IMG/VR virus record: IMGVR_UViG_3300023223_000319
Location: 1 to 54,040 of that record
Direction: 5' to 3' (one strand)
Origin: a virus
Lineage: Duplodnaviria; Caudoviricetes
Length of the DNA stretch: 54,040 nt
The position numbers and the translations under genes are program-made. This document shows, in pieces, positions 9,251-50,849 of the stretch. A model generated the notes under the pieces. The model worked only from the letters and a program-made list of their open reading frames with translations. It had not been told where the DNA came from and made no database searches. Every line of letters starts with the position of its first letter. Position 1 is the stretch's first letter.

Positions 9251-9275
9251 CACGTTTAATGCTACAATCAGCACC

Positions 9276-9374: not shown

Positions 9375-11762
9375 ATGCCGATAGATAGAGATTATTCTGA
9401 TGTTAATGCAGTCCTTATCCTTATTGAAGAGGCCCAGGATAGTGAGCGCAACCGTCGAGACAAGGTAAAGGAGGCTAAATGCTTCCTGACTAAACGTGAT
9501 GGGATGTGGCACCAGGACTCATGGGATAAGATGGCCGGGCATTATAGGGGTACATTCGACATGTGTACACCTATCGTTGATGGCATAGCAGGCGAGATAG
9601 ATCAATCAGACTTCACGCTGAGAGTCAGCCCTAGCGGCGGCAGAGCCAGCGAAGATACCGCTAGAACCCTGGACGGCCTAATCCGCAACATTCGCAACAT
9701 CTCTAATGCTGAAGACACCTTCAATAAGGCCGGACGATCAAACGTTGTGGGTGGATTTGACGCATGGGAAGTAGTCCAAGACTGGATTGATGGCGATTCA
9801 TTCGACCAAGATCTATTCATCCGTAGAATACCTGACGCTGCAAAGTCCGTATGGTTTGACATGGCCTCTGTCATGCAGGCTCCTGAAGATGCTAATTGGG
9901 CGATTAAGCTTGTTGGCATGCCAATAGCTGACTACCAGGCAAAATGGCCTGATGGCAGTCTCGTCTCTATAGGCGATAACTCAAGAGTTCCCCGGGATAA
10001 AAATAACCCAAAAGAAATAGTAACCGTTGGGCAGCTGTATTTTAAAAAACCTATCGAAATTGACCTCGTAAGAATGAATAACGGAGACGTTTATCAGGAT
10101 GATGATAAATTCAAGGCAGCTCAAGACGAATTGGCCGAGCAGGGAATTACCATTGAGGTCGATGACGAGGGGGAAGAAAAGCGCAGAACTCGCAAAAGCT
10201 GGCGCGTTCATTCTCGCATGCTTGACGGGTCAATGTGGCTAGCCGAAGAAGAAGAGACGGTCTTTGACTTCATTCCAATCGTCCCGATCTACGGTAATTA
10301 CGACTTTATTGACGATGAGCGTGTTTATTTTGGCAAGATTGAGAACCTGCTAGACCCTCAGAGGGCATATAATTATGCCGTGAGCCGAGATATCGAAGAT
10401 GGAGCTCTATCTCCTGCCGCAACAACGTGGATGACTGATAAGCAGGCAGAGGGTAATGATTATTCAAAAATGAACTTCGATCGTGCGCCGATTCGGATTT
10501 ATAACAACGACACAGCCGCAAAATCACCCCCATTCAAGACGCAAGGACCACAGGCCAGTGCTGGGCTACAGACCACAATGGCCAATATGCAGCAGATGAT
10601 TACAGTATCATCTAATACGTTCAACGCTCAACAAGGTAACGCTAGCTCGACACAGAGTGGCGTGGCAGGACTGCAACAGATTGAGCAGGGTAACATTGGA
10701 TCAATCAAGTGGTTTAAAGATCTTGAAATTGCTATTTGTTATACCGGCAAAGTATTGATTAGTGGCGCTATATCAAGAGTTTATGACGGCACTCGACTAG
10801 CGAGAATATTGGGAGAGGACGGCACCTCTAAGATGGTCGATTTGAACAAGCAGGTCTTCGATGATGAAGCTCAGGCAAACGTCACATTGAATGACCTGTC
10901 TATCGGCGAATACGATGTAGTCTGCGAAGTAGGTCCAGCATTTAACAGTGCACAGAAAGAGGCTGCCCGGGCATTTGAGGCAATCGCATCAGTAAGCCCT
11001 GACGTAGCCGCACGAAACATGGATATCTGGCTGAAGAACAAGAAAGAGCCAGGAATGGACATGATGGCTGAGAGGGAGCGAGAAGCCCTGTTTAACGCAG
11101 GACAGATACCGCAAAGCCAATGGACTGATGAAGAACAGCAAAAGGTAGCAGAGGCGCAAGCACAAGCCGCACAACAACCTCCACAGGAAGATCCTATATT
11201 GATTGCTGCAAGGGGCGCAGAAGCCGAGGGGCAGGCCGCCATATTAACAGCCCAAAACAAACAGGCAGAAATACAAGGTAATCAGCAATTGTCTGTGATG
11301 GAGTTACAACTTAAAGACAAACAGCTCGACCTAGACACGCAGAAGTTCATCCGCGCAGGCCAGGACAAGTTTAATGTTGAAGCTGCCAAGATCGGTCAGG
11401 GCGCTACAAAGCTAGATCAATCGCAGCAGTCAATCGACCAGAAAGACCAGCAGATGCTAATCGACGCCCAACAGAATCAAGACAAAATCGATCTACAGGC
11501 CAGAGAGCAGGTTATGGCCGAACAGCAGCAACAGCTCGATAGCGCCTTAAAGATACAACAGGAGCAGCGAGAGGAGCTAACAGCTGCTATTAGCGATCTC
11601 AAGACATTACGAGAAGCCATGGGGGTCGCAACGATTGTAGGGCCTCACAGCACGGAAGCGTATGTTAGCCAGGCTGTAGCAGTCACTGAGATACAAGAGG
11701 AGTCCGGGATTGATACCGAGATAGGCGAGACAGTGGCAGGGACTGCGGGTGATGAGATCTAA
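9375..11762 (+). CDS. P22-like portal protein
   Basis: 795 aa after TerL; FIPIVPIYG, DPQRAYNY, GEYDVVCEVGPAF motifs; long Gln-rich C-terminal coiled coil. Confidence 0.9.
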   Translation: MPIDRDYSDVNAVLILIEEAQDSERNRRDKVKEAKCFLTKRDGMWHQDSWDKMAGHYRGTFDMCTPIVDGIAGEIDQSDFTLRVSPSGGRASEDTARTLDGLIRNIRNISNAEDTFNKAGRSNVVGGFDAWEVVQDWIDGDSFDQDLFIRRIPDAAKSVWFDMASVMQAPEDANWAIKLVGMPIADYQAKWPDGSLVSIGDNSRVPRDKNNPKEIVTVGQLYFKKPIEIDLVRMNNGDVYQDDDKFKAAQDELAEQGITIEVDDEGEEKRRTRKSWRVHSRMLDGSMWLAEEEETVFDFIPIVPIYGNYDFIDDERVYFGKIENLLDPQRAYNYAVSRDIEDGALSPAATTWMTDKQAEGNDYSKMNFDRAPIRIYNNDTAAKSPPFKTQGPQASAGLQTTMANMQQMITVSSNTFNAQQGNASSTQSGVAGLQQIEQGNIGSIKWFKDLEIAICYTGKVLISGAISRVYDGTRLARILGEDGTSKMVDLNKQVFDDEAQANVTLNDLSIGEYDVVCEVGPAFNSAQKEAARAFEAIASVSPDVAARNMDIWLKNKKEPGMDMMAEREREALFNAGQIPQSQWTDEEQQKVAEAQAQAAQQPPQEDPILIAARGAEAEGQAAILTAQNKQAEIQGNQQLSVMELQLKDKQLDLDTQKFIRAGQDKFNVEAAKIGQGATKLDQSQQSIDQKDQQMLIDAQQNQDKIDLQAREQVMAEQQQQLDSALKIQQEQREELTAAISDLKTLREAMGVATIVGPHSTEAYVSQAVAVTEIQEESGIDTEIGETVAGTAGDEI

Positions 11763-12049
11763 TCACAAGACTTTATGCCGTCTTCCGAGTGTCCATGAGT
11801 CCAATACATTTCATTCAGCGGATATTCCCCATCTTGGCTTTCATGCGTTAACGAGTAAAGCGGCGTACCATCACAATCTCTCGTATGCTTAGCAGTGAAA
11901 AGTCTTGCGCCATTCTCCAGCTCAACAAGCACGCCAAGCCCAAGGCTGTGAGGTGTGGCATTATTTACTTGCCGGTATGACCGGCCTTTCGGGTCATCAG
12001 GGTCTTTAAGGTCGGATATAGAGGAAAAAGTTTTCATTTGGAATACCAT
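11759..12049 (-). CDS. Phage hypothetical protein (TRDCDGTPLY motif)
   Basis: Last gene of a leftward run, convergent with the portal gene. Confidence 0.6.
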   Translation of the reverse strand: MVFQMKTFSSISDLKDPDDPKGRSYRQVNNATPHSLGLGVLVELENGARLFTAKHTRDCDGTPLYSLTHESQDGEYPLNEMYWTHGHSEDGIKSCD

Positions 12050-12246
12050 GGTCTTGGGTTACACGCTGAATGGAACTTAAATGCCTTTACTTTAAATTCC
12101 GCAGTAAGATTGGAGTCGCGCATAATGCCATCAAGACACATGCCGCGAGTTGTTCTGGCGGTTTTTGTTTGAGCCTCATTTTGCCACACCAGCTTTATCC
12201 GTTCTTTAATCCTATCCGGCTCTGTGAATGGGCGCTTACGTCTCAT
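12034..12246 (-). CDS. Hypothetical protein
   Basis: GGAGG RBS, ATGA overlap. Confidence 0.5.
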   Translation of the reverse strand: MRRKRPFTEPDRIKERIKLVWQNEAQTKTARTTRGMCLDGIMRDSNLTAEFKVKAFKFHSACNPRPWYSK

Positions 12247-12524
12247 TGTTTATCCTCCTTCATCACATCAAGCTCTTTAGTCCATATCATTACGCCGTTT
12301 CTATCAATTAAATCAGCCCTGGTCGGCTCCATAGCTGTAAAATCCAGCAAGTAGTCACTCTTCCCATCCTTATCAAGCTTAATCGACGGGTAGTTCGTGA
12401 TACCTGTTCTGGTAGAAAAGAAGTGCATTTCGCCGTAACTTAACGGATTACCGTTCTGGTCTAAATACCGAAGCTCTTTGGGGCGATCAACGTTCAAGAG
12501 CTTTCTAAGGATTGTTATGATCAT
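12243..12524 (-). CDS. Hypothetical protein
   Basis: GGAGG upstream; coupled to the next gene. Confidence 0.5.
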   Translation of the reverse strand: MIITILRKLLNVDRPKELRYLDQNGNPLSYGEMHFFSTRTGITNYPSIKLDKDGKSDYLLDFTAMEPTRADLIDRNGVMIWTKELDVMKEDKQ

Positions 12525-12538
12525 TCATGTCCCTCCTG

Positions 12539-12826
12539 TTAGTCGCGTTCTGCGCAATATCTAAGTTGATCATGATTGCTACTAATTCGCTCAAAGTCAG
12601 CGTCTCTTGCTTCTTCGCTGCTGTAAGACCATTCAGCATCACACCCATCAAAAACAATACTGGGCCTTCCGGTATTGTCTGGATACCACGCAAACTTTCC
12701 CTTTCTTATGTTTTTGCACAGAGCAAGGTTCGCGGGGTTATTTTGCACAGTTTTGCCACCCCTATAGATAAAGTTCTCTAATGAGCATTTGACAAAGTAA
12801 GGCGTAGTACCATCCGGCATACTCAC
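12539..12826 (-). CDS. Hypothetical protein
   Basis: Overlaps the stop of the RHH gene. Confidence 0.5.
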   Translation of the reverse strand: MSMPDGTTPYFVKCSLENFIYRGGKTVQNNPANLALCKNIRKGKFAWYPDNTGRPSIVFDGCDAEWSYSSEEARDADFERISSNHDQLRYCAERD

Positions 12827-12978
12827 TTAATCCCCAGGTCTTTCTTGATCAGCCTATTCAGATACTCGGACATACTTATGCCGTCAGCCTCGCATTTCTT
12901 GGTTATTTCCAGACTAATCGTACTGGTAACTTTTGCGGCAATCGCAATATTTCTTAATTCTCGTCTTGGCTTTGGCAT
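12823..12978 (-). CDS. Ribbon-helix-helix DNA-binding protein
   Basis: MPKPRRELRNIAIAAKV...CEADGISMSEYLNRLI fits the Arc/CopG pattern; divergent from the ter operon. Confidence 0.6.
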   Translation of the reverse strand: MPKPRRELRNIAIAAKVTSTISLEITKKCEADGISMSEYLNRLIKKDLGIK

Positions 12979-13075
12979 TATCGCTTGACCTTTAGTTATC
13001 TTTGGTTTACTTTTGTACCCAGTGTTAGAGAATAGCACTTTTAACTACAAATACTCAATCAAAAAGGTAAATATC

Positions 13076-13645
13076 ATGGATCTGCAAATTATTGAAAAAG
13101 GCGCAACATTTGAACTGGACGTAGTATCAAAGCAGGAAGGCCCCAAAACTTACTACTTCGGTGCTGGCTGGGATAATCCCAATGGCCCTGTTGATCTTGA
13201 TATTGTTTGTGCTCTTTTGAAAGACGGCAAACTGGCCGGTAATGGTGACTTTGTTTATTTCGGCAATCGTAATGCCGCTGGTGTTGCTTTGTCTGAAGAT
13301 AACCAGACCGGCGAAGGTGAAGGCGATGACGAAAGCATTGTTATTAATACAGACGAAATCGATCCTGCCGTTGATAGCATTGTTATTGGCCTGGCTGCTT
13401 ATGCTGGTGCCGATCTTCATTCGGCGCCAAACCCTCACTTCCGCGTTTGTGATGGCTCAGAAGAGTCTAGCGAGCAAATCGGCGATGTTGTGGTTACTGG
13501 TGGCGCTATTGCCGGCGACACTGTCCTGGTCGCGTTTACGTTGAATCGTGGTGCTAATGGATGGAGCCTGGAGAATAATGCAGCGTTCCATGCCAAAGGC
13601 CAAGGTACTGGTGCTATTCAAGGTTTCGGCGCTTTGTTCTCGTAA
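13076..13645 (+). CDS. terD: TerD-family protein
   Basis: GAGWD, VDLDIVC, DFVYFGN, DNQTGEGEGDDESI; AAGG RBS before ATG 13076. Confidence 0.92.
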   Translation: MDLQIIEKGATFELDVVSKQEGPKTYYFGAGWDNPNGPVDLDIVCALLKDGKLAGNGDFVYFGNRNAAGVALSEDNQTGEGEGDDESIVINTDEIDPAVDSIVIGLAAYAGADLHSAPNPHFRVCDGSEESSEQIGDVVVTGGAIAGDTVLVAFTLNRGANGWSLENNAAFHAKGQGTGAIQGFGALFS

Positions 13646-13667
13646 TAGCACATTAAATCATACGCTC

Positions 13668-13692
13668 GCGGCCTTCGGGCCGCCTTATTTTT
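13668..13692 (+). terminator. Hairpin/terminator between terD and terB
   Basis: GCGGCC-TTCG-GGCCGC followed by a T-rich tail. Confidence 0.6.
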
Positions 13693-13704
13693 AGAGGGTT
13701 TATC

Positions 13705-14142
13705 ATGTTAAATACTTTTACAAAATTTCTCGAAGGTATTGCAGAAGAGGGTGAAAAGCTATTTTCCAGAGTCAAGGATAAAGCATTATTTCGCAAGGTT
13801 GTTTCTGCCAGCTTTCTTATTGCTCGTGCCGATGGCGATTTTGATTCTGATGAAAAAACAGCGCTGGCGACGATCGTTTCTAAAAAGCTTTCTCACTTTA
13901 GCATCGGTGATATTTTAAAAGTCCTGAATGATTGTGAGGAAAAAGTTGCCTTTGATGAAACTATGGGCGTTATGGAAATAATGGACGATATCTGCACGGC
14001 ATCAGGTAGCGATGCTGAAATGATACTTCGAATCTCTTGCTTTATTGGCGCCTCAGACGGCGATTTTGACGCCGATGAGAAAAAGGTTGCCTCGGATATG
14101 GCTAAGCGCATGAGCCTTGATCCTTCGGGTTATGGGCTGTGA
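13705..14142 (+). CDS. terB: TerB-family protein
   Basis: Two repeats, ARADGDFDSDEK and ASDGDFDADEK; ends LDPSGYGL. Confidence 0.9.
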   Translation: MLNTFTKFLEGIAEEGEKLFSRVKDKALFRKVVSASFLIARADGDFDSDEKTALATIVSKKLSHFSIGDILKVLNDCEEKVAFDETMGVMEIMDDICTASGSDAEMILRISCFIGASDGDFDADEKKVASDMAKRMSLDPSGYGL

Positions 14143-15047
14143 TAGGCTATCCACTGGTTACGGTCTCCGTCTTTATCGGCATAGCGGTTATGTTATTTGC
14201 CGCTGACCTTTTTGCGCATAAGAAGAAGGAGGCGGTATCTTTTAAATCATCCGTCATGTGGTCATTGATATATATAGCAGGTGCCATGTGTTTTGCGGCA
14301 TTTCTTTACTTCTATCATGGTCAGCAGGCGGCAAGCCTGTTTTTAACGGGGTATACGCTAGAGAAAGTCCTGGCATTTGATAATCTTTTTGTCTTCTCTC
14401 TGATATTTGCTTATTTTAAAATACCTGCACCTGATAGGCATGCAGCACTTCACTGGGGGATTATCGGGGCTATAGTATTTAGACTGGTATTCGTTGTCAT
14501 TGGCGTTGAATCAATGAGCCTATTTGGCCCTGTAATGGAGTTTATATTTGCTTGCTTAATAGCATTCACTATTTACCTAATAGTAAAGTCTGGCGATGAT
14601 GAGGCTGATTATGACAATGTGTGGTATGTAAAATATATCAGAAGGCATTTCCCTTCAGTAACGCCCTTTATCATTGCTATATGCGCTATTGAGATAAGTG
14701 ACATCATGTTTGCTTTTGATAGCGTGCCTGCGGTGATCGCCGTCACTAAAGACCCTTTGTTGATCTATAGCTCAATGATATTCGCAATACTTGGCTTAAG
14801 GTCTTTGTATTTCGTTATAGACTCGCTGTCGTCGTGCTTGAGATATATGGATGCATCGATCATATGCGTGCTGTCTTTTATCTCCATTAAACTTGCTGCC
14901 CATTCGATAACTGGATTTCATATTGAAGCAAATCACAGTTTGATTGTCGTTATTTCAATATTATCAGTTGGTATAATTTTATCTTTATTTAAAGGATCTG
15001 ATCATGAAAAAGAACCCAATACTGAAGCATCTTCGAAAGCCTCTTAA
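14139..15047 (+). CDS. terC: TerC/Alx-family membrane protein
   Basis: GYTLEKVLAFDNLFVF, WGIIGAIVFR, IEISDIMFAFDSVPA, FAILGLRSLYF. Confidence 0.95.
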   Translation: MIGYPLVTVSVFIGIAVMLFAADLFAHKKKEAVSFKSSVMWSLIYIAGAMCFAAFLYFYHGQQAASLFLTGYTLEKVLAFDNLFVFSLIFAYFKIPAPDRHAALHWGIIGAIVFRLVFVVIGVESMSLFGPVMEFIFACLIAFTIYLIVKSGDDEADYDNVWYVKYIRRHFPSVTPFIIAICAIEISDIMFAFDSVPAVIAVTKDPLLIYSSMIFAILGLRSLYFVIDSLSSCLRYMDASIICVLSFISIKLAAHSITGFHIEANHSLIVVISILSVGIILSLFKGSDHEKEPNTEASSKAS

Positions 15048-15234
15048 GTGGGCTGCCCTGGCTATATTCTGCATCATCGCTCTATCTCGAGGCGTCAGCT
15101 ATATTGCTGGCGCTTACTCATGTAGCTCGGAATGGAAAGAGAGCGGCATGGATTACAAATACAAATTAAGTGCCGGCTGCATGATAAGCCCTAACGGCAA
15201 CTGGATTCCTGCGCGAAATTACAGGATTGATTGA
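15004..15234 (+). CDS. Small membrane-anchored protein
   Basis: One hydrophobic segment, two Cys, ends WIP.RNYR. Confidence 0.6.
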   Translation: MKKNPILKHLRKPLKWAALAIFCIIALSRGVSYIAGAYSCSSEWKESGMDYKYKLSAGCMISPNGNWIPARNYRID

Positions 15235-15336
15235 GGCTTTTGGGTCTGTTTTGGCGAAATATCTAGGGATGGATAAGTTCCTGCTTATTGATAGTCCGTC
15301 TGCCAATGCGTTTTTATAATAGAAAGGAATATAAGT

Positions 15337-15669
15337 ATGGAAAAACAATGTAGTCACGGCGTCGAATGGGACGTGCACTGCGCTGAGTGTGAGATGGTCA
15401 GCCTGGATGAGACGATATTTCATGCAGGCAAAGCCCTTGCTTTAGCTAAGGCAACGAAGATTGAGGTGCAGGCGTTAATCAACGCTCAGCGTGAGGCTCT
15501 TAGTGACGCTAGTTGGCCTGATCATTTAAAGCGAGATGCACCTTATGCTCAATGCGATCAATGCCGGCGTAAGTCATGGACTTCCAAACAATTCGGCAGT
15601 ATTTGCGGAATGGTTGATCTAGACAGGAATAGAACTTGCCCTGGCCGCTTAATAAAAACAGTTCAATAA
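15337..15669 (+). CDS. Cys-rich putative Zn-binding protein
   Basis: CSHG...CAEC and CDQC...C...C motifs; AGGA RBS. Confidence 0.55.
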   Translation: MEKQCSHGVEWDVHCAECEMVSLDETIFHAGKALALAKATKIEVQALINAQREALSDASWPDHLKRDAPYAQCDQCRRKSWTSKQFGSICGMVDLDRNRTCPGRLIKTVQ

Positions 15670-15692
15670 TGCACGACTACTGGAGTTAGAAG

Positions 15693-16922
15693 ATGAGCAA
15701 GTATAAATATATATTTGACGATACGGCATCCAGCCCAATCAAGCATTGGACTAAAGGCGTGGAGCTAGACGATAAAGCAAGAGACCAGCTATACAATATT
15801 GCCTCGATGCCATTCATCCACAAGCATGTTGCAGTGATGCCTGATGTTCACTGGGGCAACGGGGCTACCATAGGATCAGTTATAGCCACCAAGGGAGCCA
15901 TTATACCGGCTGCGGTAGGCGTTGATATTGGCTGCGGAATGATGGCGCTTAAAACGTCACTAAAGGCCACTGACCTGCCTGATAACCTTCACGCTATACG
16001 CAGCGCCATAGAGGCAGAAATCCCCCATGGGCGCACTGATAACGGCGGTAAGAATGACAAAGGCGGATGGGGTGATGTAATGCCATCGGATAACGCCGAT
16101 TCATGGCTAAGGCTTTCTGTTGGTTATGAAGCTATATTGGCAAAGCACCCTAAAGCGAAGTCATTCAATAACGCATCTCACCTAGGAACGCTCGGAACTG
16201 GCAACCACTTCATTGAATTATGCCTTGATGAAAATGACGATGTTTGGGTAATGCTGCATTCTGGTTCTCGTGGAGCCGGCAACCGTATTGGCATGTATTT
16301 CATTGAGAAAGCGAAAAAGGAGATGGAGCGATATTATATTGATAAGTATCTGCCGGATCGTGAGCTTGCCTATTTAGTTGAGCATTCGGAGATTTTCGAT
16401 GATTACGTTTCTGCGGTTGCGTGGGCCCAGGATTACGCGCTTGAAAACAGAAAGCTTATGATGGCTCAAGTTTTAGGTGCGATGAAGCGACACTTAAAGC
16501 CATTCACAATTGAAGATGAGGCGATTAACTGCCATCACAACTACATAGATAGAGAGAATCATTTCGGCTCTAATGTGTGGGTGACTCGCAAAGGTGCTGT
16601 TCGCGCCAGAGAGAAAGATTTAGGGATTATTCCAGGCTCCATGGGCACCGGGTCATTCATTGTTCGCGGACTAGGCAACAAAGACTCATTCTGTAGCTGC
16701 TCTCATGGAGCTGGCCGCGTAATGTCTAGAGGTGAGGCAAAGAGAAAGATAACGCTAGAGCAGCACGAAAAAGCCATGACAGGAATCGAGGCGAGACTTG
16801 ATGCCGGCGTCATTGATGAAAGTCCTGCGGCCTATAAAGACATTGGCGCGGTAATGGATGCTCAGAGTGACTTAGTTGAAATTGTTTATCGTCTTCGTCA
16901 AGTGATAAATGTTAAAGGCTAG
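15693..16922 (+). CDS. rtcB: RNA-splicing/repair ligase RtcB
   Basis: MPDVH.G.G, GVDIGCGM, GTLGTGNHFIE, HSGSRG, HNY, PGSMG, SHGAGR, DESPAAYKDI, VKG end. Confidence 0.97.
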   Translation: MSKYKYIFDDTASSPIKHWTKGVELDDKARDQLYNIASMPFIHKHVAVMPDVHWGNGATIGSVIATKGAIIPAAVGVDIGCGMMALKTSLKATDLPDNLHAIRSAIEAEIPHGRTDNGGKNDKGGWGDVMPSDNADSWLRLSVGYEAILAKHPKAKSFNNASHLGTLGTGNHFIELCLDENDDVWVMLHSGSRGAGNRIGMYFIEKAKKEMERYYIDKYLPDRELAYLVEHSEIFDDYVSAVAWAQDYALENRKLMMAQVLGAMKRHLKPFTIEDEAINCHHNYIDRENHFGSNVWVTRKGAVRAREKDLGIIPGSMGTGSFIVRGLGNKDSFCSCSHGAGRVMSRGEAKRKITLEQHEKAMTGIEARLDAGVIDESPAAYKDIGAVMDAQSDLVEIVYRLRQVINVKG

Positions 16923-16968
16923 GCCACTAGCGCGCATTACAGAATGTTAACTTGATGATATCTGGCTG

Positions 16969-17086
16969 TGCTATAATATCAGCTTGGCTTTGGTCGGCCT
17001 AATTCGTAAGTTAACAAAGCTCAGGCTTTTATCCTTTATCGCACTTACGCGAAACGACCAAAGGGATAGAAGTCTGAGCTTTTTTA
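16969..17086 (+). promoter_or_regulatory. Promoter plus attenuator-like leader of the NAD operon
   Basis: TGCTATAAT extended -10; long stem 17016-17037/17060-17082 followed by a T-run; the 5' TTTGGTCG and TTCGTAAGT complement the hairpin loop. Confidence 0.7.
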
Positions 17087-17098
17087 TTGGAGAACAAT

Positions 17099-17926
17099 AT
17101 GATTTCAATAAGGATTTGTGGAGATAATTATTACCCATCCGTTATGGTTTTCTCTGGCGGTGAGGTCAATGTAACACTCCCCACTATATTGCCTTACTCT
17201 ATTGACTCATACACATTGAAGGCAAAAATAAAGAGTTCCGAAGATTTAATGACTCTCTTTATGGTGAAGAATGCTCTCAATGTTAAATATGGATCAAATG
17301 TTACATCTCAGCTAATAATCCCATATCTGCCTTATGCCAGACAGGACAGGGTATGTAATCCTGGTGAGGCGCTATCAATCAAGGTTATGGCTGACCTTAT
17401 TAATAGCATGGCCTTCTCAAGGGTGATTACCTACGACAACCATAGTGACGTATCCACGGCGCTTATCGACAACTGCAACAACAAACTGCCAAGTCAGCTA
17501 ATTGCTCAATGTGGTGAAATTAATAACCTTCTTACAAAGACAAGGGTATCTCTGTGCTGTCCTGATGCCGGAGCAGCCAAGAAGGTCTATGGAGTGTCTA
17601 AGGCCTATGGAGGGGTGCCGGTTGTTATGGCTGAAAAGATTCGTGATGTAAAGACAGGTGAAATTACCCATACCGAGGTTTATGCCGATGATCTTGGCGG
17701 ACAAAGCATTCTTGTAATTGATGATATCTGCGATGGAGGAATGACATTTATTAAGTTGGCTGAAAAACTTATAGCAAAAAATGCAGGCCCACTATTTTTA
17801 TATGTTACTCATGGAATTTTTAGCAAGGGACTAGATGCTCTTTCCATGTATCAAAAGATATATACCACTGATAGTTTTTCAGCAGTAGAAGACGGAAACG
17901 ATAAACTTTACATAATCAAGCCATAG
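17099..17926 (+). CDS. Ribose-phosphate pyrophosphokinase-like protein (likely NARP1 Adps)
   Basis: FSGGE, PYLPYARQDR, PDAGA, VIDDICDGGMTF, VTHGIFSKG; immediately upstream of the NAMPT homologue. Confidence 0.9.
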   Translation: MISIRICGDNYYPSVMVFSGGEVNVTLPTILPYSIDSYTLKAKIKSSEDLMTLFMVKNALNVKYGSNVTSQLIIPYLPYARQDRVCNPGEALSIKVMADLINSMAFSRVITYDNHSDVSTALIDNCNNKLPSQLIAQCGEINNLLTKTRVSLCCPDAGAAKKVYGVSKAYGGVPVVMAEKIRDVKTGEITHTEVYADDLGGQSILVIDDICDGGMTFIKLAEKLIAKNAGPLFLYVTHGIFSKGLDALSMYQKIYTTDSFSAVEDGNDKLYIIKP

Positions 17927-17935
17927 GATAACACC

Positions 17936-19498
17936 ATGAAAATCAACCCTTTAACTCAAATTGACTTCTACAAAGCCGATCACAGGCGTCAATATCCAGA
18001 CGGAACTACGCTGGTGTACTCTAATTTCACCCCTCGCAGCGATAAGCTTGCGCCTATCCTAGAAGAATTTTGGGATGGCAAGATTACATTCTACGGGCTT
18101 CAGGGTTTTTGTAAGTGGTTCCTGATTGATCTATGGAATGCTGAATTCTTCAATAAGCCAAAAGATATTGTGGTGAAGAAATATAAGCGCAGAATGGATA
18201 CTTCTTTAGGCGTTGACGCTATCGATATTGCCCACATTGAAGCTCTGCATGACCTGGGATATCTACCTGTCAAGATCAAGGCACTCCCCGAAGGCTCTCA
18301 AGTTGGCATGAAAGTCCCGGTATTTACCATTGAAAACACGCTACCTGAATTCTTCTGGCTGACTAACTACCTTGAGTCGGTAATGAGCACGGAGATATGG
18401 AAGCCGTGCACTACTGCAACCATTGCATTTCAGTATAAAAAGCTGCTTACGAGCTATGCAGTGGCAACAGGGGCTCCTTTAGACTTCGTACCTATCCAGT
18501 GTCACGACTTCAGCTTACGCGGCCTCAGCGGACTGCATGACGCCCACTCTAGCGCATCCGGCCACTTGCTTAGCTTTGTTGGTACGGACTCAATTCCAGC
18601 CATCGACTATTTAGAAGAGTATTACAATGCAGACTGCGAGAAAGAGCTTGTGGGTTGTAGCGTACCGGCGACAGAGCATTCAGTGATGTGTATGGGCGGC
18701 CAGGATGATGAGATAGGAACTTTCCGGCGCCTTATTACTGAAACCTATCCTGCTGGAGTGGTCTCTATAGTGTCTGATACTTGGGATTTCTGGAAGGTTG
18801 TCACTGAGTACACCGTGGCCCTGAAAGATGAAATCATGAGTCGGAAGCCCAATGTCATCGGATTAAATAAGGTGGTCTTGCGTCCAGATAGCGGCGATCC
18901 TATACGGATTATTTGCGGTTATACCGAAGATGAGATAATCAGAGATCCTCATGGCTGCATCCAAGTCAAGGCGAGCTCTGGCGCTAAAAACCTTACTGAG
19001 CATGAAGTAAGGGGCGCAGTACAGTGCTTATGGGATATATTCGGAGGTACTGAAACTTCACTGGGTTATAATTTACTCGATGAGCATATTGGCCTGATTT
19101 ACGGCGATTCAATTACCTTGCGGCGGGCCAAAGAAATCCTCCAGCGGTTGAAAGATAAGGGCTTTGCGTCCACTAACGTGGTATTTGGTGTGGGTTCCTA
19201 TACATATCAATACAATACCCGGGACACATTCGGCTTTGCCATGAAGGCAACTTATGGCGAAGTTAATGGAGAGGGGCGAGAGATATTCAAAGACCCGGCC
19301 ACTGATGACGGCATTAAGAAGTCTGCTAAAGGCCTTCTAGCTGTTGTTGATGGTTCTGACGGGTATCAGCTGGTAGGCCAATTAACCCGGGAGACTCAAG
19401 AGCTTCTCTGCGTGATGGATGTTGTGTTTGCCGATGGAGGGATGATCAGGGATCAATCTTTGTCTGGAATCCGTGAGTTAATCGATAACTCTTTGTAA
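17936..19498 (+). CDS. Nicotinamide phosphoribosyltransferase-like protein (likely NARP1 Namat)
   Basis: DFYKADH, HDFSLRG, SVPATEHSVM, SIVSDTWD, RPDSGDP, IYGDSIT, RDTFGFAMKAT, KKSAKG. Confidence 0.95.
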   Translation: MKINPLTQIDFYKADHRRQYPDGTTLVYSNFTPRSDKLAPILEEFWDGKITFYGLQGFCKWFLIDLWNAEFFNKPKDIVVKKYKRRMDTSLGVDAIDIAHIEALHDLGYLPVKIKALPEGSQVGMKVPVFTIENTLPEFFWLTNYLESVMSTEIWKPCTTATIAFQYKKLLTSYAVATGAPLDFVPIQCHDFSLRGLSGLHDAHSSASGHLLSFVGTDSIPAIDYLEEYYNADCEKELVGCSVPATEHSVMCMGGQDDEIGTFRRLITETYPAGVVSIVSDTWDFWKVVTEYTVALKDEIMSRKPNVIGLNKVVLRPDSGDPIRIICGYTEDEIIRDPHGCIQVKASSGAKNLTEHEVRGAVQCLWDIFGGTETSLGYNLLDEHIGLIYGDSITLRRAKEILQRLKDKGFASTNVVFGVGSYTYQYNTRDTFGFAMKATYGEVNGEGREIFKDPATDDGIKKSAKGLLAVVDGSDGYQLVGQLTRETQELLCVMDVVFADGGMIRDQSLSGIRELIDNSL

Positions 19499-19507
19499 TT
19501 AATAACT

Positions 19508-19542
19508 GCTCCTAGCAGGGTCGAGTCCTGCTAGGAGTACCA
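19508..19542 (+). ncRNA. 35-nt tRNA minihelix-like element
   Basis: GCTCCTA GCAGG GTCGAGT CCTGC TAGGAGT A CCA: 7-bp acceptor stem plus 5-bp T-stem, 7-nt loop, discriminator and CCA. Confidence 0.6.
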
Positions 19543-19556
19543 ATTTAAGGGTTAAT

Positions 19557-20030
19557 ATGAGCATCAAGGAAATAACCATGAAGACTAATGGAGTGAGAGG
19601 TTTCTGCGGAATCGGGCTAGATAATCCAAAGAGCAATATTAATGTTGGCGCGGCTTTAAGAGCTGCCGGAGTCTATGGCGCTTCATTTGTCGCTGCAAGT
19701 GGTGGGCGATGGACAAGCGACAAAACTGACACCATGAAAAGTTACAGGCACTTACCTTTACTACGTCCTGAGAATCTAAGGGACTTACTGCCGTATGACT
19801 GTGTTCCCGTTGCTGTTGATTTAATCGAGGGGGCAATTGCACTGCCGGAATACAAACATCCAGAAAGAGCCTTTTATATATTTGGCGCAGAGGATGCGAC
19901 GTTGGGCGAAAGAATCACTGGGTGGTGTCGAGATACTATCTACATACCAACTAACGGGTGTATGAATTTAGCGGCCACTGTAAATGTCGTGCTTTATGAC
20001 AGGCTGGCTAAAAGCTTAATTAAGGATTGA
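19557..20030 (+). CDS. SpoU/TrmH-family (SPOUT) RNA 2'-O-methyltransferase
   Basis: NPKSNINVGAALRAA, YIFGAEDATL, IPTNGCMNLAATVNVVLYD. Confidence 0.92.
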   Translation: MSIKEITMKTNGVRGFCGIGLDNPKSNINVGAALRAAGVYGASFVAASGGRWTSDKTDTMKSYRHLPLLRPENLRDLLPYDCVPVAVDLIEGAIALPEYKHPERAFYIFGAEDATLGERITGWCRDTIYIPTNGCMNLAATVNVVLYDRLAKSLIKD

Positions 20031-20031
20031 T

Positions 20032-20292
20032 ATGTCTATTGACGAAAACAGCTACAACCAAGGATCTCGCATGGCATGGCGACGAATGCTTCAGCAATGT
20101 TGCCGTGAGCTAGGATATGATGATATTGAAACAGATAAGGCCAGATGGATATTAGAGCGAGAGGCGGCTATTAGTGCGCTGCGTAGCGTCTGCTCAGGTC
20201 ATGGCGATAATGACTGGGAAGATAATTTGTACATGGGAGATATTATAGAGAAGCATTTGCTCAATAACCTTGAGTCTGCTTCTGGCGGCTAG
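20032..20292 (+). CDS. Hypothetical protein
   Basis: Packed after the methyltransferase; GDNDW...DIIEKHL. Confidence 0.6.
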   Translation: MSIDENSYNQGSRMAWRRMLQQCCRELGYDDIETDKARWILEREAAISALRSVCSGHGDNDWEDNLYMGDIIEKHLLNNLESASGG

Positions 20293-20294
20293 AT

Positions 20295-21248
20295 TTACCC
20301 TCTGTATACAGAGATAAGCCAGTCATCCCAAAAGCCTGTATCAACCTTATCTGGATAAGGCGACTTATCAGCCAAGCCCTCAACCTCGGCTATGAGGCTT
20401 TCTAGCAACGGCTGCACGAATGATAGAAAATCATAATCTCCAATCTTAATGCCTCGGATTACGTCCCTATCCTTCAGTGGATATTCAATGCAGCCATTCA
20501 AGTATATCTCCTTAAGCTGATAAGCAGCCCTGATAGCGTGAGAGACAGCCTTCCAGTCAATACCCTCATTATCCTTTGCTTGCCGCGCACGCTCACCGTA
20601 TGAGCTCCATTTTACATCCATGGAGGCGATAAACTGATGTAGCGGCATGGAATTCTGATACTTGGAGCCTAGAACCTCATAAAACTCCTGCTCTTCGCCT
20701 GATTTCAGCTTGTCGTTAATGAATCTGCAATGATCATTAACAGGCAATTTATCCCAGATAGATAATAGCTTTCTTGGCTCCGAGAGAATATGCTGCCTTG
20801 ATACATTCCATACCTCTTCAAGCGCGCCCATTCTACTGCCTTTTAGGCCATACTTGGCGGCCTGCTTCTTGGCATACCCAAGGAAGGCTTTCATATTTTT
20901 AGTGTAGAATCGGTCTTTGTTAGCCACGATAAAAGCCCATTCAGGCGAGCCACAAAGAACCATTTCCCTATTAGTGTGGGCATGCAGCATATCCAGAGCT
21001 ATAGTTTCACCCTGGCAAGCCAGCTTGATAAACTCAGGCAATGAATACCAATCGCTATCAATATCATCGGATGAGTTCTTGGTTTCGTTATTGCCGGATG
21101 ATTCGCTGACCTGCCTAGGAGACTTACCTAATAACAGCTCATCCAGCTCAGGCATGAAGACGCCTTTGTAGTCCGTGTCTGACTGAGGCGTATCAAGCCC
21201 ATACAGATGCGAGCCGTGAATGCACTGGAATAGCTTTTTGTATTTCAT
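20295..21248 (-). CDS. Pol-beta-superfamily nucleotidyltransferase (RlaP / T4 NrdC.11-like)
   Basis: GSHLYGLDTPQSDTDYKGVF, GYAKKQAAKYG.KGSR, DWKAVSHAIR. Confidence 0.88.
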   Translation of the reverse strand: MKYKKLFQCIHGSHLYGLDTPQSDTDYKGVFMPELDELLLGKSPRQVSESSGNNETKNSSDDIDSDWYSLPEFIKLACQGETIALDMLHAHTNREMVLCGSPEWAFIVANKDRFYTKNMKAFLGYAKKQAAKYGLKGSRMGALEEVWNVSRQHILSEPRKLLSIWDKLPVNDHCRFINDKLKSGEEQEFYEVLGSKYQNSMPLHQFIASMDVKWSSYGERARQAKDNEGIDWKAVSHAIRAAYQLKEIYLNGCIEYPLKDRDVIRGIKIGDYDFLSFVQPLLESLIAEVEGLADKSPYPDKVDTGFWDDWLISVYRG

Positions 21249-21793
21249 TTTGGCCCCAAGTAATAATCAATGATAATTCTGCTCAGCGTATTCCATAGCT
21301 CTTTGTCTCCGTCCTTGAGAAGGCCGAGTAATAACTGCATTTCTTTCATGTATACTTTCGCAAAGCCTGGATCATGCTGAGTTATGGACTCCGAGTTATG
21401 AATCAAGTCGGCAAGTTTTACTGTCTTGGCGCGATCAGAAATCCCTGATAGGTGTTCTCGGTCCATAGCCTTGCGAATAGCACGATTCCCATCTTCAGGC
21501 TTTGATACATCAGACGGCTCTACAACCATATTAGCGACCGTACACCCAAAGCCTGCTCTCATAATGTCTTGATGTGTTATCGTAGTATCCTCAATAACGT
21601 CGTGCAGTATCGCGGAAGTCACCATATCTACGTCATAGTAATCACAAGTCATAACAATCTTGGCAACGGCTATAGGGTGGTTGATATAGGGCTCTCCGGT
21701 GTATTTCCTTACTTGGTCGCCATGGGCTTCATTGCCGAATTTCACAGCAAAATCGATTAAATCCTGGCTTCTTTCGTAGATTATTCCGTGCAT
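21245..21793 (-). CDS. Stand-alone HD hydrolase (SpoT-hydrolase/Mesh1-like)
   Basis: AH.DQVRKYTGEPYINHP, AILHDVIEDT, VKLADLIHN. Confidence 0.9.
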   Translation of the reverse strand: MHGIIYERSQDLIDFAVKFGNEAHGDQVRKYTGEPYINHPIAVAKIVMTCDYYDVDMVTSAILHDVIEDTTITHQDIMRAGFGCTVANMVVEPSDVSKPEDGNRAIRKAMDREHLSGISDRAKTVKLADLIHNSESITQHDPGFAKVYMKEMQLLLGLLKDGDKELWNTLSRIIIDYYLGPK

Positions 21794-21804
21794 ACATTCC
21801 TCAC

Positions 21805-22011
21805 TTAATGCGCCTTATCCCCAGCCCTAACCATATCAAGCAAAGGCTTAAGCACTCCAAAATCATTGATATCTGCTTCGATATCTTCCTGATGAGCCAT
21901 GGCAAACATTAACCCAGCCTGCATTGATTCTATGGCGTCTGAGTACAGGACAAAGGCGCCTTCATCGTCTTCTTGAATATCAAATACGGTCTTTGTTTTA
22001 TAGCGTTTCAT
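21805..22011 (-). CDS. Hypothetical protein
   Basis: AGGA RBS; in the leftward run. Confidence 0.55.
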   Translation of the reverse strand: MKRYKTKTVFDIQEDDEGAFVLYSDAIESMQAGLMFAMAHQEDIEADINDFGVLKPLLDMVRAGDKAH

Positions 22012-22050
22012 ATCATTTCCTATATTGTAAAATGGTATTTGTGCAGGCGT

Positions 22051-22491
22051 TTAATTCTCTTCTTTCCGTTTCTTAATCAGTGCCCAGTGTTTAAGATCGC
22101 CCGTCTCTAAAGGGTTTAGCCCCTCCCATGCCTTTGATGGGTGCGGGTCGTGAATTACCAGTCCGGAGCTATTAATTAAAACTGCGTGTGTCACTCCGTC
22201 TTCAGGAGGGTAGTTTTTACTGGACACCGTAGCCTCTATACACCCATTAACCGTTGGTGATCTAGCAAGTCTTTCTCTGGTTTCTTCGATAGTTTTTTTA
22301 GGATGCCCCGTTCCAAGCATTTCATAGCCAATTGCGTAAACAAAGCCACAAAGAACTGGCCACCACGTATGTTCATCAAACAGCCTGAAATGAGGGACTT
22401 GTGACACATCTAGGTCAAACAGGCTGGCTATTGCTGTTTGGTGGCAGTTGCCACGGGTTCTATCTGTGATCGTTTGCGTGTGCCTAATCAT
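22051..22491 (-). CDS. Putative papain-fold (C39-like) protein
   Basis: Q...GNCHQTAIASL (Cys), THAV (His), HDP (Asp). Confidence 0.55.
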   Translation of the reverse strand: MIRHTQTITDRTRGNCHQTAIASLFDLDVSQVPHFRLFDEHTWWPVLCGFVYAIGYEMLGTGHPKKTIEETRERLARSPTVNGCIEATVSSKNYPPEDGVTHAVLINSSGLVIHDPHPSKAWEGLNPLETGDLKHWALIKKRKEEN

Positions 22492-22694
22492 TCCTCACTC
22501 TCTTTATCCGGCAGCCCAGCAATCATTTTGTTCAATTTGTCGTGAGATTTGGCATTAGCCGTCATTCGCTCATATGTTGCGCGACATATCCCCCAGTACT
22601 CTATGAAATCCTTAACAAGCCAGCCTTTGCCATGAAGTATCAAAGTAAATCTATTCAAGTAGGTATCTCCCCATAGTTTGCTGGAACATAGCAT
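22488..22694 (-). CDS. Small hypothetical protein, possible HTH
   Basis: First gene of the leftward unit; KGWLVKDFIEYWGICRATYER. Confidence 0.45.
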   Translation of the reverse strand: MLCSSKLWGDTYLNRFTLILHGKGWLVKDFIEYWGICRATYERMTANAKSHDKLNKMIAGLPDKESEE

Positions 22695-22808
22695 AAAACT
22701 GTTGGTATTTCAAATATTTAGGGGGGGCTCTATAATTGATGCAGGCCGACAGCAAGCCTATTGCTGGCACGGTGAGAGATCACCTATACCTATTTTAAGG
22801 GCGTTAAC

Positions 22809-23648
22809 ATGAGTGATGAAGGGCTACAAACCGGTGAATTGTCGCAAGAAAATCAAGCGGCTAGTGCCGAAAACCAACCTGCTGAGCAACTAAGTCAACA
22901 GGCTGGAGCGGAGTTAGCAACCGATACTGAAGGGCAGCAGGAAAAAACAGCCCAAGTTGATGAGGCAGCAGCGAAAGCAGCAGCGGCCACTCAGAAGGTT
23001 ATCAACGAAAAGCATTTTCAGACCAAGCAGGCAGAGCGAGAGCGCGACGACGCCCTGGCACAGATTGCAACGTTTGAACAGGAAAAACGAGACGCTGAAG
23101 CCGCGAGAGCCGGCGATATCCCTCCCATTCCTGAAGAGTTCGATGATAATTTTAAAGAGAAAATGGTGGAGCGAGATGCGGCTATAGCACGACAAGCCAC
23201 GTTTCAAGCTAGCCAGGCCAATTACAACCAGCAGCTGGAGAATCAGCAAGCATTAGCGCAACAGCAGGCTCAGGCGGAACGGCAGCAGAAAGTTGTTAGC
23301 TATAACGCCAAGGCAGTAGAGTTTGGTATTAATGAGGCAGAATTGCGAGCGGCAGAAAATGCAGTAATGAGTTACGGACTTTCCGATGACACATCCGCCC
23401 ACATTATGGCGGATTCAGACGGCCCGTTAATTGTTAAGCACTTGGCTGCAAACCCGGCAGACACGATGACGCTAGTGAATATGTCGCCGTTTCAACAGGG
23501 TGCATTTTTGGATCACATTAAGGCCAAAGCTAGTGCGCTTAAACCAAAACAAACGCAAACCCCCAATCCTCCGGAGATTTTGACCGGTGGTGGCGCTCAA
23601 GTTGATGTTGATAAATATCCAAATAGCGCAGGGGCAACTTTTTCATAA
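22809..23648 (+). CDS. Scaffolding protein
   Basis: Acidic Q/A/E coiled coil directly before the coat gene; GPLIVKHLAANP and PNPPE tail. Confidence 0.8.
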   Translation: MSDEGLQTGELSQENQAASAENQPAEQLSQQAGAELATDTEGQQEKTAQVDEAAAKAAAATQKVINEKHFQTKQAERERDDALAQIATFEQEKRDAEAARAGDIPPIPEEFDDNFKEKMVERDAAIARQATFQASQANYNQQLENQQALAQQQAQAERQQKVVSYNAKAVEFGINEAELRAAENAVMSYGLSDDTSAHIMADSDGPLIVKHLAANPADTMTLVNMSPFQQGAFLDHIKAKASALKPKQTQTPNPPEILTGGGAQVDVDKYPNSAGATFS

Positions 23649-50689: not shown

Positions 50690-50767
50690 CTGTGTGTAGC
50701 TCAGCTTGGTTAGAGTGCTCGGTTTGGAACTGAGGGGTCGTAGGTTCGAATCCTACCACACAGACCA
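50690..50767 (+). tRNA. tRNA-Pro (TGG)
   Basis: Cloverleaf: CTGTGTG/CACACAG, CTCGG-TTTGGAA-CTGAG, GTAGG-TTCGAAT-CCTAC, ACCA. Confidence 0.95.
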
Positions 50768-50772
50768 CTTTT

Positions 50773-50849
50773 GCTCCCTTAGCCCAATTGGCAGAGGCGC
50801 TGGATTTAGATTCCAGAGGTTCTAGGTTCGACTCCTAGAGGGAGTACCA
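50773..50849 (+). tRNA. tRNA-Leu (TAG), short variable loop
   Basis: GCTCCCT/AGGGAGT, CTGGA-TTTAGAT-TCCAG, CTAGG-TTCGACT-CCTAG, ACCA. Confidence 0.92.

Follow-up and report, generated by a model that had tools for sequence, protein, structure and literature searches.

An accessory island of a P22-like marine phage combines RtcB, a NARP1-type pair, a SPOUT methyltransferase and an HD-RlaP pair, probably as separate modules

The virus record IMGVR_UViG_3300023223_000319 (Duplodnaviria; Caudoviricetes), which was analysed over its whole length of 54,040 bp and is referred to below as the window, carries within 6.1 kb of its accessory island the genes of four enzyme families that act on RNA or nucleotides: an RtcB RNA ligase, a SPOUT methyltransferase of the SpoU/TrmH class (hereafter SpoU), an RlaP nucleotidyltransferase and an HD_4 protein (hereafter HD). 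The original prediction had placed these four families within 6 kb and had interpreted them as one system for the repair and immunisation of RNA. All four are indeed present there, each with a score above the Pfam curated cut-off. However, the content of the span had been described incompletely: a Prs-like/Nampt-like gene pair at 17087-19498, between RtcB and SpoU, which occupies 2412 of the 6101 bases (40%), an open reading frame (ORF) of 86 amino acids (aa) and the division of the span into two convergent transcription units had been missed. Our analysis suggests that the island is probably a mosaic of separately mobile counter-defence or auxiliary modules and not one four-gene pathway. The genes of the span are the following:

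15693-16922, + strand, RtcB RNA ligase
17087-17926, + strand, Adps-like (Prs-like) protein, probable ATG start at 17099
17936-19498, + strand, Namat (nicotinamide ADP-ribose transferase), directly downstream of the Adps-like gene
19557-20030, + strand, SpoU methyltransferase
20032-20292, + strand, 86-aa ORF, downstream of SpoU
20295-21248, - strand, RlaP, a Pol-beta nucleotidyltransferase of the T4 NrdC.11 type
21245-21793, - strand, HD_4 protein, RelA/SpoT-hydrolase-like, of the "small alarmone hydrolase" type

Thus, RtcB and SpoU are encoded on the plus strand, and HD and RlaP are the final two genes of a convergent five-gene minus-strand unit, in which the stop of HD and the start of RlaP overlap by 4 bases.

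The RtcB protein matched its family over the entire profile (PF01139, positions 1-426 of 426, E 9.7e-129; 430.7 bits against a cut-off of 27, and 430.2 bits in the genome search) as well as phrog_1075 (E 4.7e-146), and it showed 60-66% identity to the RtcB of isolate phages. Its translation contains VDIGCGM, GTGNHF, HSGSRG, NCHHNY and SHGAGR, which we take to be the metal-binding Cys/His residues and the guanylylated His of HGAGR. RtcB seals breaks with 2',3'-cyclic-phosphate and 5'-OH ends, as in tRNA cut by anticodon nucleases. It was the only RNA ligase detected in the genome, where PF09414 gave no match and neither did PF09511, for which the control genomes gave none too.

The SpoU protein matched PF00588 (E 2.1e-12; 47.8 bits against a cut-off of 29.7); the start at 19578 selected by the gene caller gives a length of 150 aa. 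All three SpoU motifs are conserved in an alignment of 53 homologues, with the motif residues N22, G24, R28, G103, E105 and N130 kept in at least 90% of the sequences. The AlphaFold2 model (pLDDT 91.4) has the alpha/beta fold of SPOUT enzymes and was found by Foldseek to be about equally close to AviRb, TrmH, RlmB, TrmJ and TrmL (TM-score 0.73-0.83, 16-24% identity; probability 1.00 for TrmH, RlmB and AviRb). A phmmer search of the single sequence against the PDB sequences gave one non-significant match (E 0.73), so that a family profile was needed; with it, the methyltransferase domain of TARBP1 came first (3e-12), followed by Gm18-type TrmH (5e-10), with TrmJ and TrmL below them. Neither the profile search nor Foldseek singled out a subfamily or a target nucleotide. 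The enzyme thus shares with TrmH, TrmL, TrmJ, RlmB and AviRb the minimal SPOUT domain with its three motifs, and it differs from them in the invariant, family-specific residues H94 and R142 and in the lack of any match to a curated NCBIfam family, the TrmL equivalog included, at E up to 0.01. We predict that SpoU is a minimal stand-alone RNA 2'-O-methyltransferase dependent on S-adenosylmethionine, which would most likely methylate one tRNA nucleotide.

Two more specific identities were considered for SpoU and rejected. TrmL, which forms Cm34/Um34 in tRNA, was discarded owing to the missing equivalog match and to a homologue in Vibrio atlanticus that is separate from the TrmL-like paralogue of that genome; the name "TrmL" attached to some metagenomic homologues is an automatic JGI label. 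Hen1 was discarded because the fold is that of SPOUT enzymes and not that of Hen1, and the genome contains no Pnkp-type kinase domain (AAA_33). The 86-aa ORF, which had no Pfam, PHROG, NCBIfam or PADLOC match, was likewise dismissed as a conserved partner of SpoU, given that the 14 such downstream ORFs from 26 other loci resembled neither it nor one another.

The RlaP protein matched PF10127 (E 9.1e-12; 45.6 bits against a cut-off of 23, profile positions 21-143 of 249) and, over its full length, phrog_388 (E 1.6e-88). The residues G12, S13, D24, D26 and D86, which represent the Pol-beta motif hG[GS]...DxD together with a third acidic residue, are invariant in 10 homologues, and identity to NrdC.11-type proteins was 40-47%. 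The HD protein (182 aa) matched PF13328 (E 4e-16; 59.6 bits against 27.2) and, with its N-terminal part, positions 1-123 only of TIGR00691 (1e-22). The residues H24, H39, H64, D65, E68, D69, D129 and N133 are invariant in 5 homologues; the protein therefore has the composition of a small alarmone hydrolase (SAH), namely a hydrolase domain with HD and ED motifs and no synthetase domain. A predicted complex of RlaP and HD scored 0.04, a value that carries no weight either way.

The first gene of the pair between RtcB and SpoU encodes a protein of 275-279 aa with matches to phrog_619 (E 1.1e-79) and TIGR01251 (116.5 bits); the latter match stops at profile position 271 of 309. Adps is reported to lack the C-terminal module of PRPS (PMC13586617), and because the end of the match fits this loss, we regard the short Prs-like protein as probably Adps-like, judging by profile, length and adjacency. 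The best solved relatives of the second protein were 9W5X/9W5W (E 1.7e-172; animal Nampt about 5e-63), which are structures of Namat of the Bacillus phage SpbetaL1, the second NARP1 enzyme (PMC12774641). In the alignment, the catalytic R306 of the SpbetaL1 enzyme corresponds to R316 here, the clamp-helix residues F392 and Y396 to Y422 and Y426, and the loop residue R40 to K37; the R40 loop is described as variable (PMC12774641). Accordingly, the locus resembles NARP1 of SpbetaL1 in the adjoining short Prs-like and Nampt-like genes, in R306 and in the aromatic residues at the F392/Y396 positions, and differs from it in K37 for R40 and in its host, which is of a marine gammaproteobacterium-type lineage and not Bacillus. 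With a Nampt of the Namat clade, an aromatic adenine-clamp helix and an adjoining Prs homologue, the putative pair matches NARP1, a pathway of NAD+ reconstitution reported in 4.3% of about 20,000 phage genomes (10.1101/2024.02.11.579819).

The joint occurrence of the four families was analysed with each gene in turn as the anchor, in metagenomic records of which many are fragments and which are phylogenetically dependent. Around SpoU, tblastn with the island proteins revealed RtcB in the flanks (up to 10 kb) of 3 of the 27 loci, with Prs, Nampt, RlaP and HD at 0/27; over the whole records, RtcB was found in 5/27, RlaP in 0/27 and HD_4 in 3/27, never RtcB together with HD_4, and RtcB was present in one of the ten SpoU records that are at least 90% complete. 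Among the 80 nearest viral loci of RtcB (60-79% identity, flanks up to 8 kb), SpoU and RlaP were absent from all, HD was found at 3, a Nampt-like gene at 5 and a Prs-like gene at 1. The whole-record analysis of this anchor covered the 43 records of at least 30 kb, leaving out 37 shorter contigs, and gave SpoU_methylase in 0/43, RlaP in 2/43 and HD_4 in 7/43, never RlaP with HD_4. The ten viral RlaP loci had an adjoining HD gene in one case (L032) and Prs with Nampt within 3-6 kb in two, with RtcB and SpoU at none; RtcB was also absent from all ten whole records, nine of which are fragments. Within 6 kb of HD, finally, RtcB, RlaP, SpoU, Prs and Nampt were all at 0/35. Thus, across 27 and 43 whole records and the surroundings of 35 HD and 10 RlaP loci, at most a pair of the four families was found together outside the window, and the set RtcB, SpoU, RlaP and HD did not recur. 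The base rates in isolate phages, which come from a different collection of 50,697 records searched by tblastn, were 694 for RtcB, 1533 for RlaP (NrdC.11-type proteins), 326 for HD and 4 for SpoU; megablast of the 6.1-kb region against the same records found no match. The original prediction had made co-occurrence of the four families beyond chance one of the two points on which it could fail, and on this point it did not hold: pairs of the families recur, the set of four does not.

The position of the span within the genome is given by three features:

9375-11762, portal gene (PF16510, E 3.6e-114)
11763-22808, accessory (cargo) island of 11 kb between the portal and scaffold genes
22809-23648, scaffold gene of the P22-like morphogenesis module

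The record has a CheckV completeness of 100% and a P22-like portal. Among isolates, its capsid protein comes closest to that of Pseudoalteromonas virus H6/1 (56% identity); identity to the capsid proteins of Sf6/HK620-type phages is about 34-35%. The genome can be assigned to a complete P22-like marine phage of 54 kb, of podovirus type. In H6/1 the gap between the portal and scaffold genes measures about 850 bp and holds four small genes, in comparison to 11 kb here. A sister phage (L015), with capsid protein 85% and portal 52% identical to those of the window, has a shorter island at the same site, consisting of TerD, TerB, TerC, a 76-aa ORF and SpoU between portal and scaffold. Its record, analysed over the whole length, lacks RtcB, RlaP and HD_4; no NARP1 gene is present at the locus compared. 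This comparison suggests that RtcB with NARP1 on one side of SpoU and the HD-RlaP unit on the other were gained or lost separately.

The SpoU family proved to be abundant and mostly phage-borne. At E up to 1e-3, at least 6153 metagenomic proteins were found (1398 cluster representatives at 50% identity); the best 120 of the 6153 share 72-94% identity, and many of them lie on contigs of 30-80 kb. An alignment of 12 sequences used as the query yielded 186 matches on viral contigs and at least 591 in species-representative bacterial genomes. Vibrio, Photobacterium, Aliivibrio and Stutzerimonas have chromosomal homologues with 55-62% identity, whose surroundings are conserved among the members of a genus: Vibrio has PolB, an uncharacterised gene, an EF-P-like gene, DUF440, SpoU and an S4-type pseudouridine synthase in this order, and Photobacterium has a SEC-C protein, SpoU and an EF-G paralogue (examples are L133:7494-9702, L150:7516-11106 and L180, V. 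atlanticus chromosome 1, around 2,292,800-2,293,200). V. atlanticus encodes six PF00588 paralogues, one of which is this homologue (66.5 bits) and another the TrmL-like protein of 161 aa. This extra SpoU-class paralogue of Vibrionaceae and Stutzerimonas is apparently unstudied. We consider the phage protein a probable tRNA 2'-O-methyltransferase that was acquired from gammaproteobacterial hosts or is common to them and the phage.

At the 27 viral-contig loci of SpoU (relatives at 37-81% identity), no cluster of neighbours, six genes being taken on each side, occurred at more than two loci (blastp, 1e-5). A census of 148 neighbouring ORFs at these loci (125 aa or longer, no more than 3.5 kb away), which left out shorter ORFs, 39 of them of 110-124 aa, counted RtcB with 3 ORFs (2 loci), DnaB_C with 3, PF09414 with 2, level with several other families, and Thg1 with 1. 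An RNA ligase was located within 3.5 kb of SpoU at 4/27 loci (L026, L029, L009 and L012), against about 1.3 expected under uniform placement, a model that takes no account of how phage genomes are organised in modules (rough P 0.018). A further locus, L326, has SpoU beside a PF09414 ligase, as do L009 and L012. SpoU homologues occur in two annotated isolate phages, and each of them has the trio of the window within about 6 kb: in Mycobacterium phage WXIN (L002, 7959-14569) SpoU is accompanied by Pnkp and a Prs-like/Nampt pair, and in Rhodococcus phage NiceHouse (L042, 5848-11062) by a PF09414 ligase and another such pair. The link of SpoU to RNA repair in phages is therefore recurrent, albeit weak, and most copies stand alone. 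In the literature searched, supplements lying outside the search, we found no report of a phage SPOUT enzyme acting against anticodon nucleases.

Three individual arrangements around SpoU may be recorded. Locus L029 (8091-10435) has a tight Thg1-RtcB-SpoU array with overlapping Thg1/RtcB and RtcB/SpoU junctions; its RtcB lies in two frames (8815-9261 and 9390-9992), which may be due to a frameshift, an assembly error or a split gene. A TROVE/Ro60 gene lies 0.5 kb from SpoU in L314 (5001-7233), and an RlaP gene 3.5 kb from SpoU in L283 (5001-9153).

The neighbourhoods of HD were examined at its 35 nearest viral homologues (43-66% identity), with one representative of each neighbour cluster scanned against Pfam. 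A repair-type gene was found within 6 kb, and mostly within 2 kb, at 18 of the 35 loci: an AAA_33 kinase at 14, a Metallophos (calcineurin-like) phosphoesterase at 13 and a T4 Rnl1-type ligase at 7; a DSP-type phosphatase was present at 13 of the HD loci. These cassettes show at least five gene arrangements, and those composed of DSP phosphatase, AAA_33 kinase, Metallophos, HD_4 and Rnl1 were found in L216-L242 (e.g., L231:3580-7925 and L223:3942-6260). HD also lies 1.1 kb downstream of RtcB in L108. The overlapping HD-RlaP pair has a counterpart in L032, with 68% and 82% identity, respectively, which is apparently located elsewhere with respect to the portal gene. As a separate observation, a TROVE/Ro60-RtcB-HD_4 operon with genes overlapping end to end occurs at L089:6677-9751, in a record classified by IMG/VR as a provirus. 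A divergent HD upstream of T4-type nrdC.11 was sought in PEi20 ORF-102 and rejected (hhalign probability 0.2).

Published work offers both readings of such a protein. SAH-type enzymes have been reported to strip the 3'-pyrophosphate added by toxSAS from the CCA ends of tRNA, an activity that the authors likened to the 3'-phosphatase of T4 Pnk (10.1101/2021.04.30.441581). A survey of jumbo phages treats "HD-alarmone" enzymes as degraders of alarmones and mentions that "HD-like" domains occasionally act as RNA 3'-phosphatases (PMC7824862). The gene context of HD would favour RNA ends as the substrate; its sequence would fit alarmones equally well. The literature searched, which did not include supplements or the survey of Burroughs and Aravind 2016, described no alarmone-hydrolase-type HD as a regular member of a heal-and-seal cassette.

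Taken together, these data point to a mosaic island composed of five putative modules: TerDBC, RtcB, NARP1, a stand-alone SPOUT methyltransferase and HD-RlaP. RtcB would seal the 2',3'-cyclic-phosphate/5'-OH breaks left in tRNA by anticodon nucleases, as known for its family. The translationally coupled HD_4-RlaP pair would most likely heal and refill RNA 3' ends. The RlaP of Pseudomonas has been reported to add one or two nucleoside monophosphates to an RNA 3'-OH and to refuse 3'-phosphorylated RNA (10.64898/2025.12.29.696909). HD may be the end-healing partner that removes a 3'-phosphate or 3'-pyrophosphate and supplies the 3'-OH strictly needed by RlaP, which would then add one or two nucleotides as its bacterial homologues do. 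Plausibly, RtcB and HD-RlaP both serve tRNA repair. The Adps-Namat pair would rebuild NAD+ from ADP-ribose and nicotinamide after NAD+-depleting defences have fired, and the SPOUT enzyme would be an autonomous RNA 2'-O-methyltransferase whose occasional place beside RNA ligases fits a role in conflicts over tRNA. The earlier idea, in which this enzyme would immunise tRNA against ribotoxins, makes chemical sense and draws on loose adjacency.

Several observations weigh against this interpretation in whole or in part. Functions throughout are deduced from sequence and gene context, and since most metagenomic records are fragments, a missing family is weak evidence of absence. RtcB is lacking in 22 of the 27 SpoU records, and none of the 80 bacterial SpoU loci has a homologue of RtcB, RlaP, HD, Prs or Nampt within 8 kb. 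In a larger sample of 80 SpoU loci (5-kb flanks, contigs partly those of the 27-locus set), a repair-family gene lay within 5 kb at only 6 (RtcB 1, PF09414 3, TROVE 1, RlaP 1), and adjacency statistics from uniform placement overstate significance, because phages cluster auxiliary genes. No repair gene was located near HD at 17 of its 35 loci, and many of the 18 positive ones may come from related, and thus not independent, phages. HD adjoins RlaP at only one of the ten RlaP loci, and the T4-type NrdC.11 neighbourhood lacks HD. The complete SpoT/Mesh1-type hydrolase signature of HD makes plain degradation of (p)ppGpp or (pp)pApp possible. Lastly, the authors of the RlaP study themselves raise the point that its 3'-OH product is not ligatable by RtcB (10.64898/2025.12.29.696909).

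The integrated pathway of the original prediction, in which HD and RlaP rework the ends, RtcB seals them and the SPOUT enzyme, as a Hen1 analogue on another fold, 2'-O-methylates the cleavage-site nucleotide against re-cutting, either before damage or after repair, draws on the clustering of the four genes within 6.1 kb and on pairwise repair links elsewhere (L029, L009, L012, L326, L314, L283, L089, L032 and the RtcB-RlaP operons of Pseudomonas). It also has a chemical basis, since a 2'-O-methyl group blocks transesterification, with Pnkp-Hen1 as the precedent, and RtcB is enriched in the SpoU records (5/27 against 694/50,697 isolates), with a rough binomial P of 3e-5 that compares different collections and detection methods. 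Nevertheless, the family counts speak against it: no other record or locus examined unites more than two of the families, SpoU is present in 0/43 RtcB records, the 5-kb flanks of SpoU are free of repair genes at 74 of 80 loci, and in the sister phage SpoU stands without RtcB, RlaP and HD. The genes are also split between two convergent units with the NARP1 pair in between; the close bacterial homologues of the SPOUT enzyme stand in housekeeping contexts (EF-P-like, pseudouridine synthase, EF-G paralogue), never near repair genes; and neither profile nor fold indicates an anticodon-loop enzyme, the best sequence matches being the Gm18-type TARBP1 and TrmH. We therefore consider this pathway quite improbable. 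What stands of it is that RtcB, RlaP and HD have neighbourhood or published links to RNA repair; what does not is a conserved four-gene system. A bolder version would make the SPOUT family pre-emptive tRNA-immunising 2'-O-methyltransferases, similar to Hen1 but built on another fold, with HD as the 3'-end phosphatase feeding RlaP; the methyl group would be placed on the nucleotide attacked by transesterifying nucleases or on the 2'-OH targeted by RNA-modifying toxins. This would explain why SpoU repeatedly lies beside RtcB, Rnl2-type ligases, Pnkp, Thg1, TROVE and RlaP in unrelated phages; we hold it to be unlikely.

At the other extreme, only RtcB, and perhaps RlaP, would serve RNA repair, while HD and the SPOUT enzyme would have nothing to do with RNA damage: HD would be a plain small alarmone hydrolase of (p)ppGpp or (pp)pApp that blunts the stringent response or alarmone-based immunity, and the SPOUT enzyme a host-derived tRNA or rRNA methyltransferase that tunes translation during infection. 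The RelA/SpoT hydrolase signature of HD (TIGR00691 1e-22; invariant HD/ED residues) and the reading of phage "HD-alarmone" enzymes in the jumbo-phage survey (PMC7824862) agree with this, as does the frequency of HD_4 in large marine phage records whatever the marker (3/27 with SpoU, 7/43 with RtcB). So do the chromosomal SPOUT homologues at 55-62% identity in a genus-conserved context that includes translation genes, and the solitary position of most phage copies. However, kinase, phosphoesterase or Rnl1 genes stand next to HD at 18 of 35 loci, HD overlaps RtcB in L089 and RlaP in both the window and L032, and RNA ligases share first place with the DnaB helicase in frequency among the 148 SpoU neighbours. 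This alternative is conceivable but doubtful, and a mosaic in which HD-RlaP acts on RNA ends remains the interpretation that we prefer.

Among known systems, the bacterial RtcB-RlaP operons, reported in Pseudomonas (10.64898/2025.12.29.696909), and T4 NrdC.11 provide close parallels: like the RtcB-RlaP-RtcA operons, the window has RtcB and a PF10127 nucleotidyltransferase in one genome, and its RlaP is of the NrdC.11 type. Unlike these operons, it has no RtcA, and its RlaP lies 3.4 kb from RtcB on the opposite strand, coupled to HD_4; RtcB and RlaP rarely share the sampled phage records (2/43 and 0/10). The likeness to Pnkp-Hen1 is one of concept only, an RNA ligase and an RNA 2'-O-methyltransferase in one genome, given the SPOUT fold, the lack of a Pnkp-type kinase domain and a linkage that is not conserved. 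As for the Rsr (Ro/TROVE)-RtcB operons and the T4-type Pnkp and Rnl1 cassettes, homologues of HD are located inside such cassettes in other viral contigs, whereas the window has no TROVE, kinase, Metallophos or Rnl1, and its HD pairs with RlaP.

Phage RtcB/RlaP repair and NARP1 are already known counter-defences, and to meet them next to each other in a single island is no more than the usual mosaicism. Of wider interest is the presence of a SpoT/Mesh1-type HD subfamily within heal-and-seal cassettes at about half of the sampled viral loci. Should HD act as a 3'-(pyro)phosphatase on RNA, RlaP would receive its 3'-OH from it, and the repair of nuclease damage would be linked with the reversal of tRNA pyrophosphorylation by toxSAS; even then, the 3'-OH product of RlaP and the 3'-phosphate needed by RtcB would stay mismatched. 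The SPOUT family is very abundant in phages, and its product would tell whether phages protect tRNA by methylation.

The remaining genes of the island lie on both sides of the span. From the left, small ORFs are followed by TerD-TerB-TerC, the 76-aa ORF, a Cys-rich ORF and RtcB; on the right, the Prs-like, Nampt-like and SpoU genes and the 86-aa ORF meet the convergent five-gene minus-strand unit. They comprise:

13013-15047, + strand, Ter module as a whole, in the island and outside the four-family span
13073-13645, + strand, TerD (PF02342, 1.8e-19)
13705-14142, + strand, TerB (PF05099, 2.4e-12)
14139-15047, + strand, TerC (PF03741, 1.5e-37)
between TerC and the Cys-rich ORF, 76-aa ORF, also present in the sister phage
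15337-15669, + strand, 110-aa Cys-rich ORF, 24 bp upstream of RtcB
21805-22011, - strand, small ORF in the same leftward unit as HD and RlaP
22051-22491, - strand, small ORF of the same leftward unit (phrog_5845, 4.4e-17)
22488-22694, - strand, small ORF that heads the leftward unit ending in HD and RlaP

The Ter proteins are 77% (TerD), 51% (TerB) and 60% (TerC) identical to those of the sister phage; a function of phage Ter genes in superinfection exclusion has been proposed (PMC7824862). The Cys-rich ORF had no Pfam, PHROG, NCBIfam or PADLOC match. A role as an RtcB cofactor was rejected for it, as it has no relative on viral contigs and is absent at 80/80 RtcB loci. A PADLOC search of the genome gave no match, and cluster listings and protein-atlas records supplied only generic or automatically assigned names. 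A 95-aa ORF at 12539-12826 on the minus strand gave the only Hen1-related signal, a Hen1_N match below threshold (18.7 bits, cut-off 27; E 0.0015), which is probably due to chance.

Promoter-like sites facing both directions were found at 22685-22736, although such sites are overall as many in shuffled sequence; the same holds for terminators, with the exception of one strong GC-rich hairpin with a T-run, which lies directly 3' of TerD at 13668-13683. Two adjoining tRNA genes, Pro(TGG) and Leu(TAG), are located at 50690-50849; they were the sole RNA families identified by Rfam in the genome, which yielded no Y-RNA-like partner of RtcB. The small ORF with the phrog_5845 match also occurs in a complete phage record of 70 kb (L094), which has homologues of TerD, HD_4 and RtcB within 15 kb.

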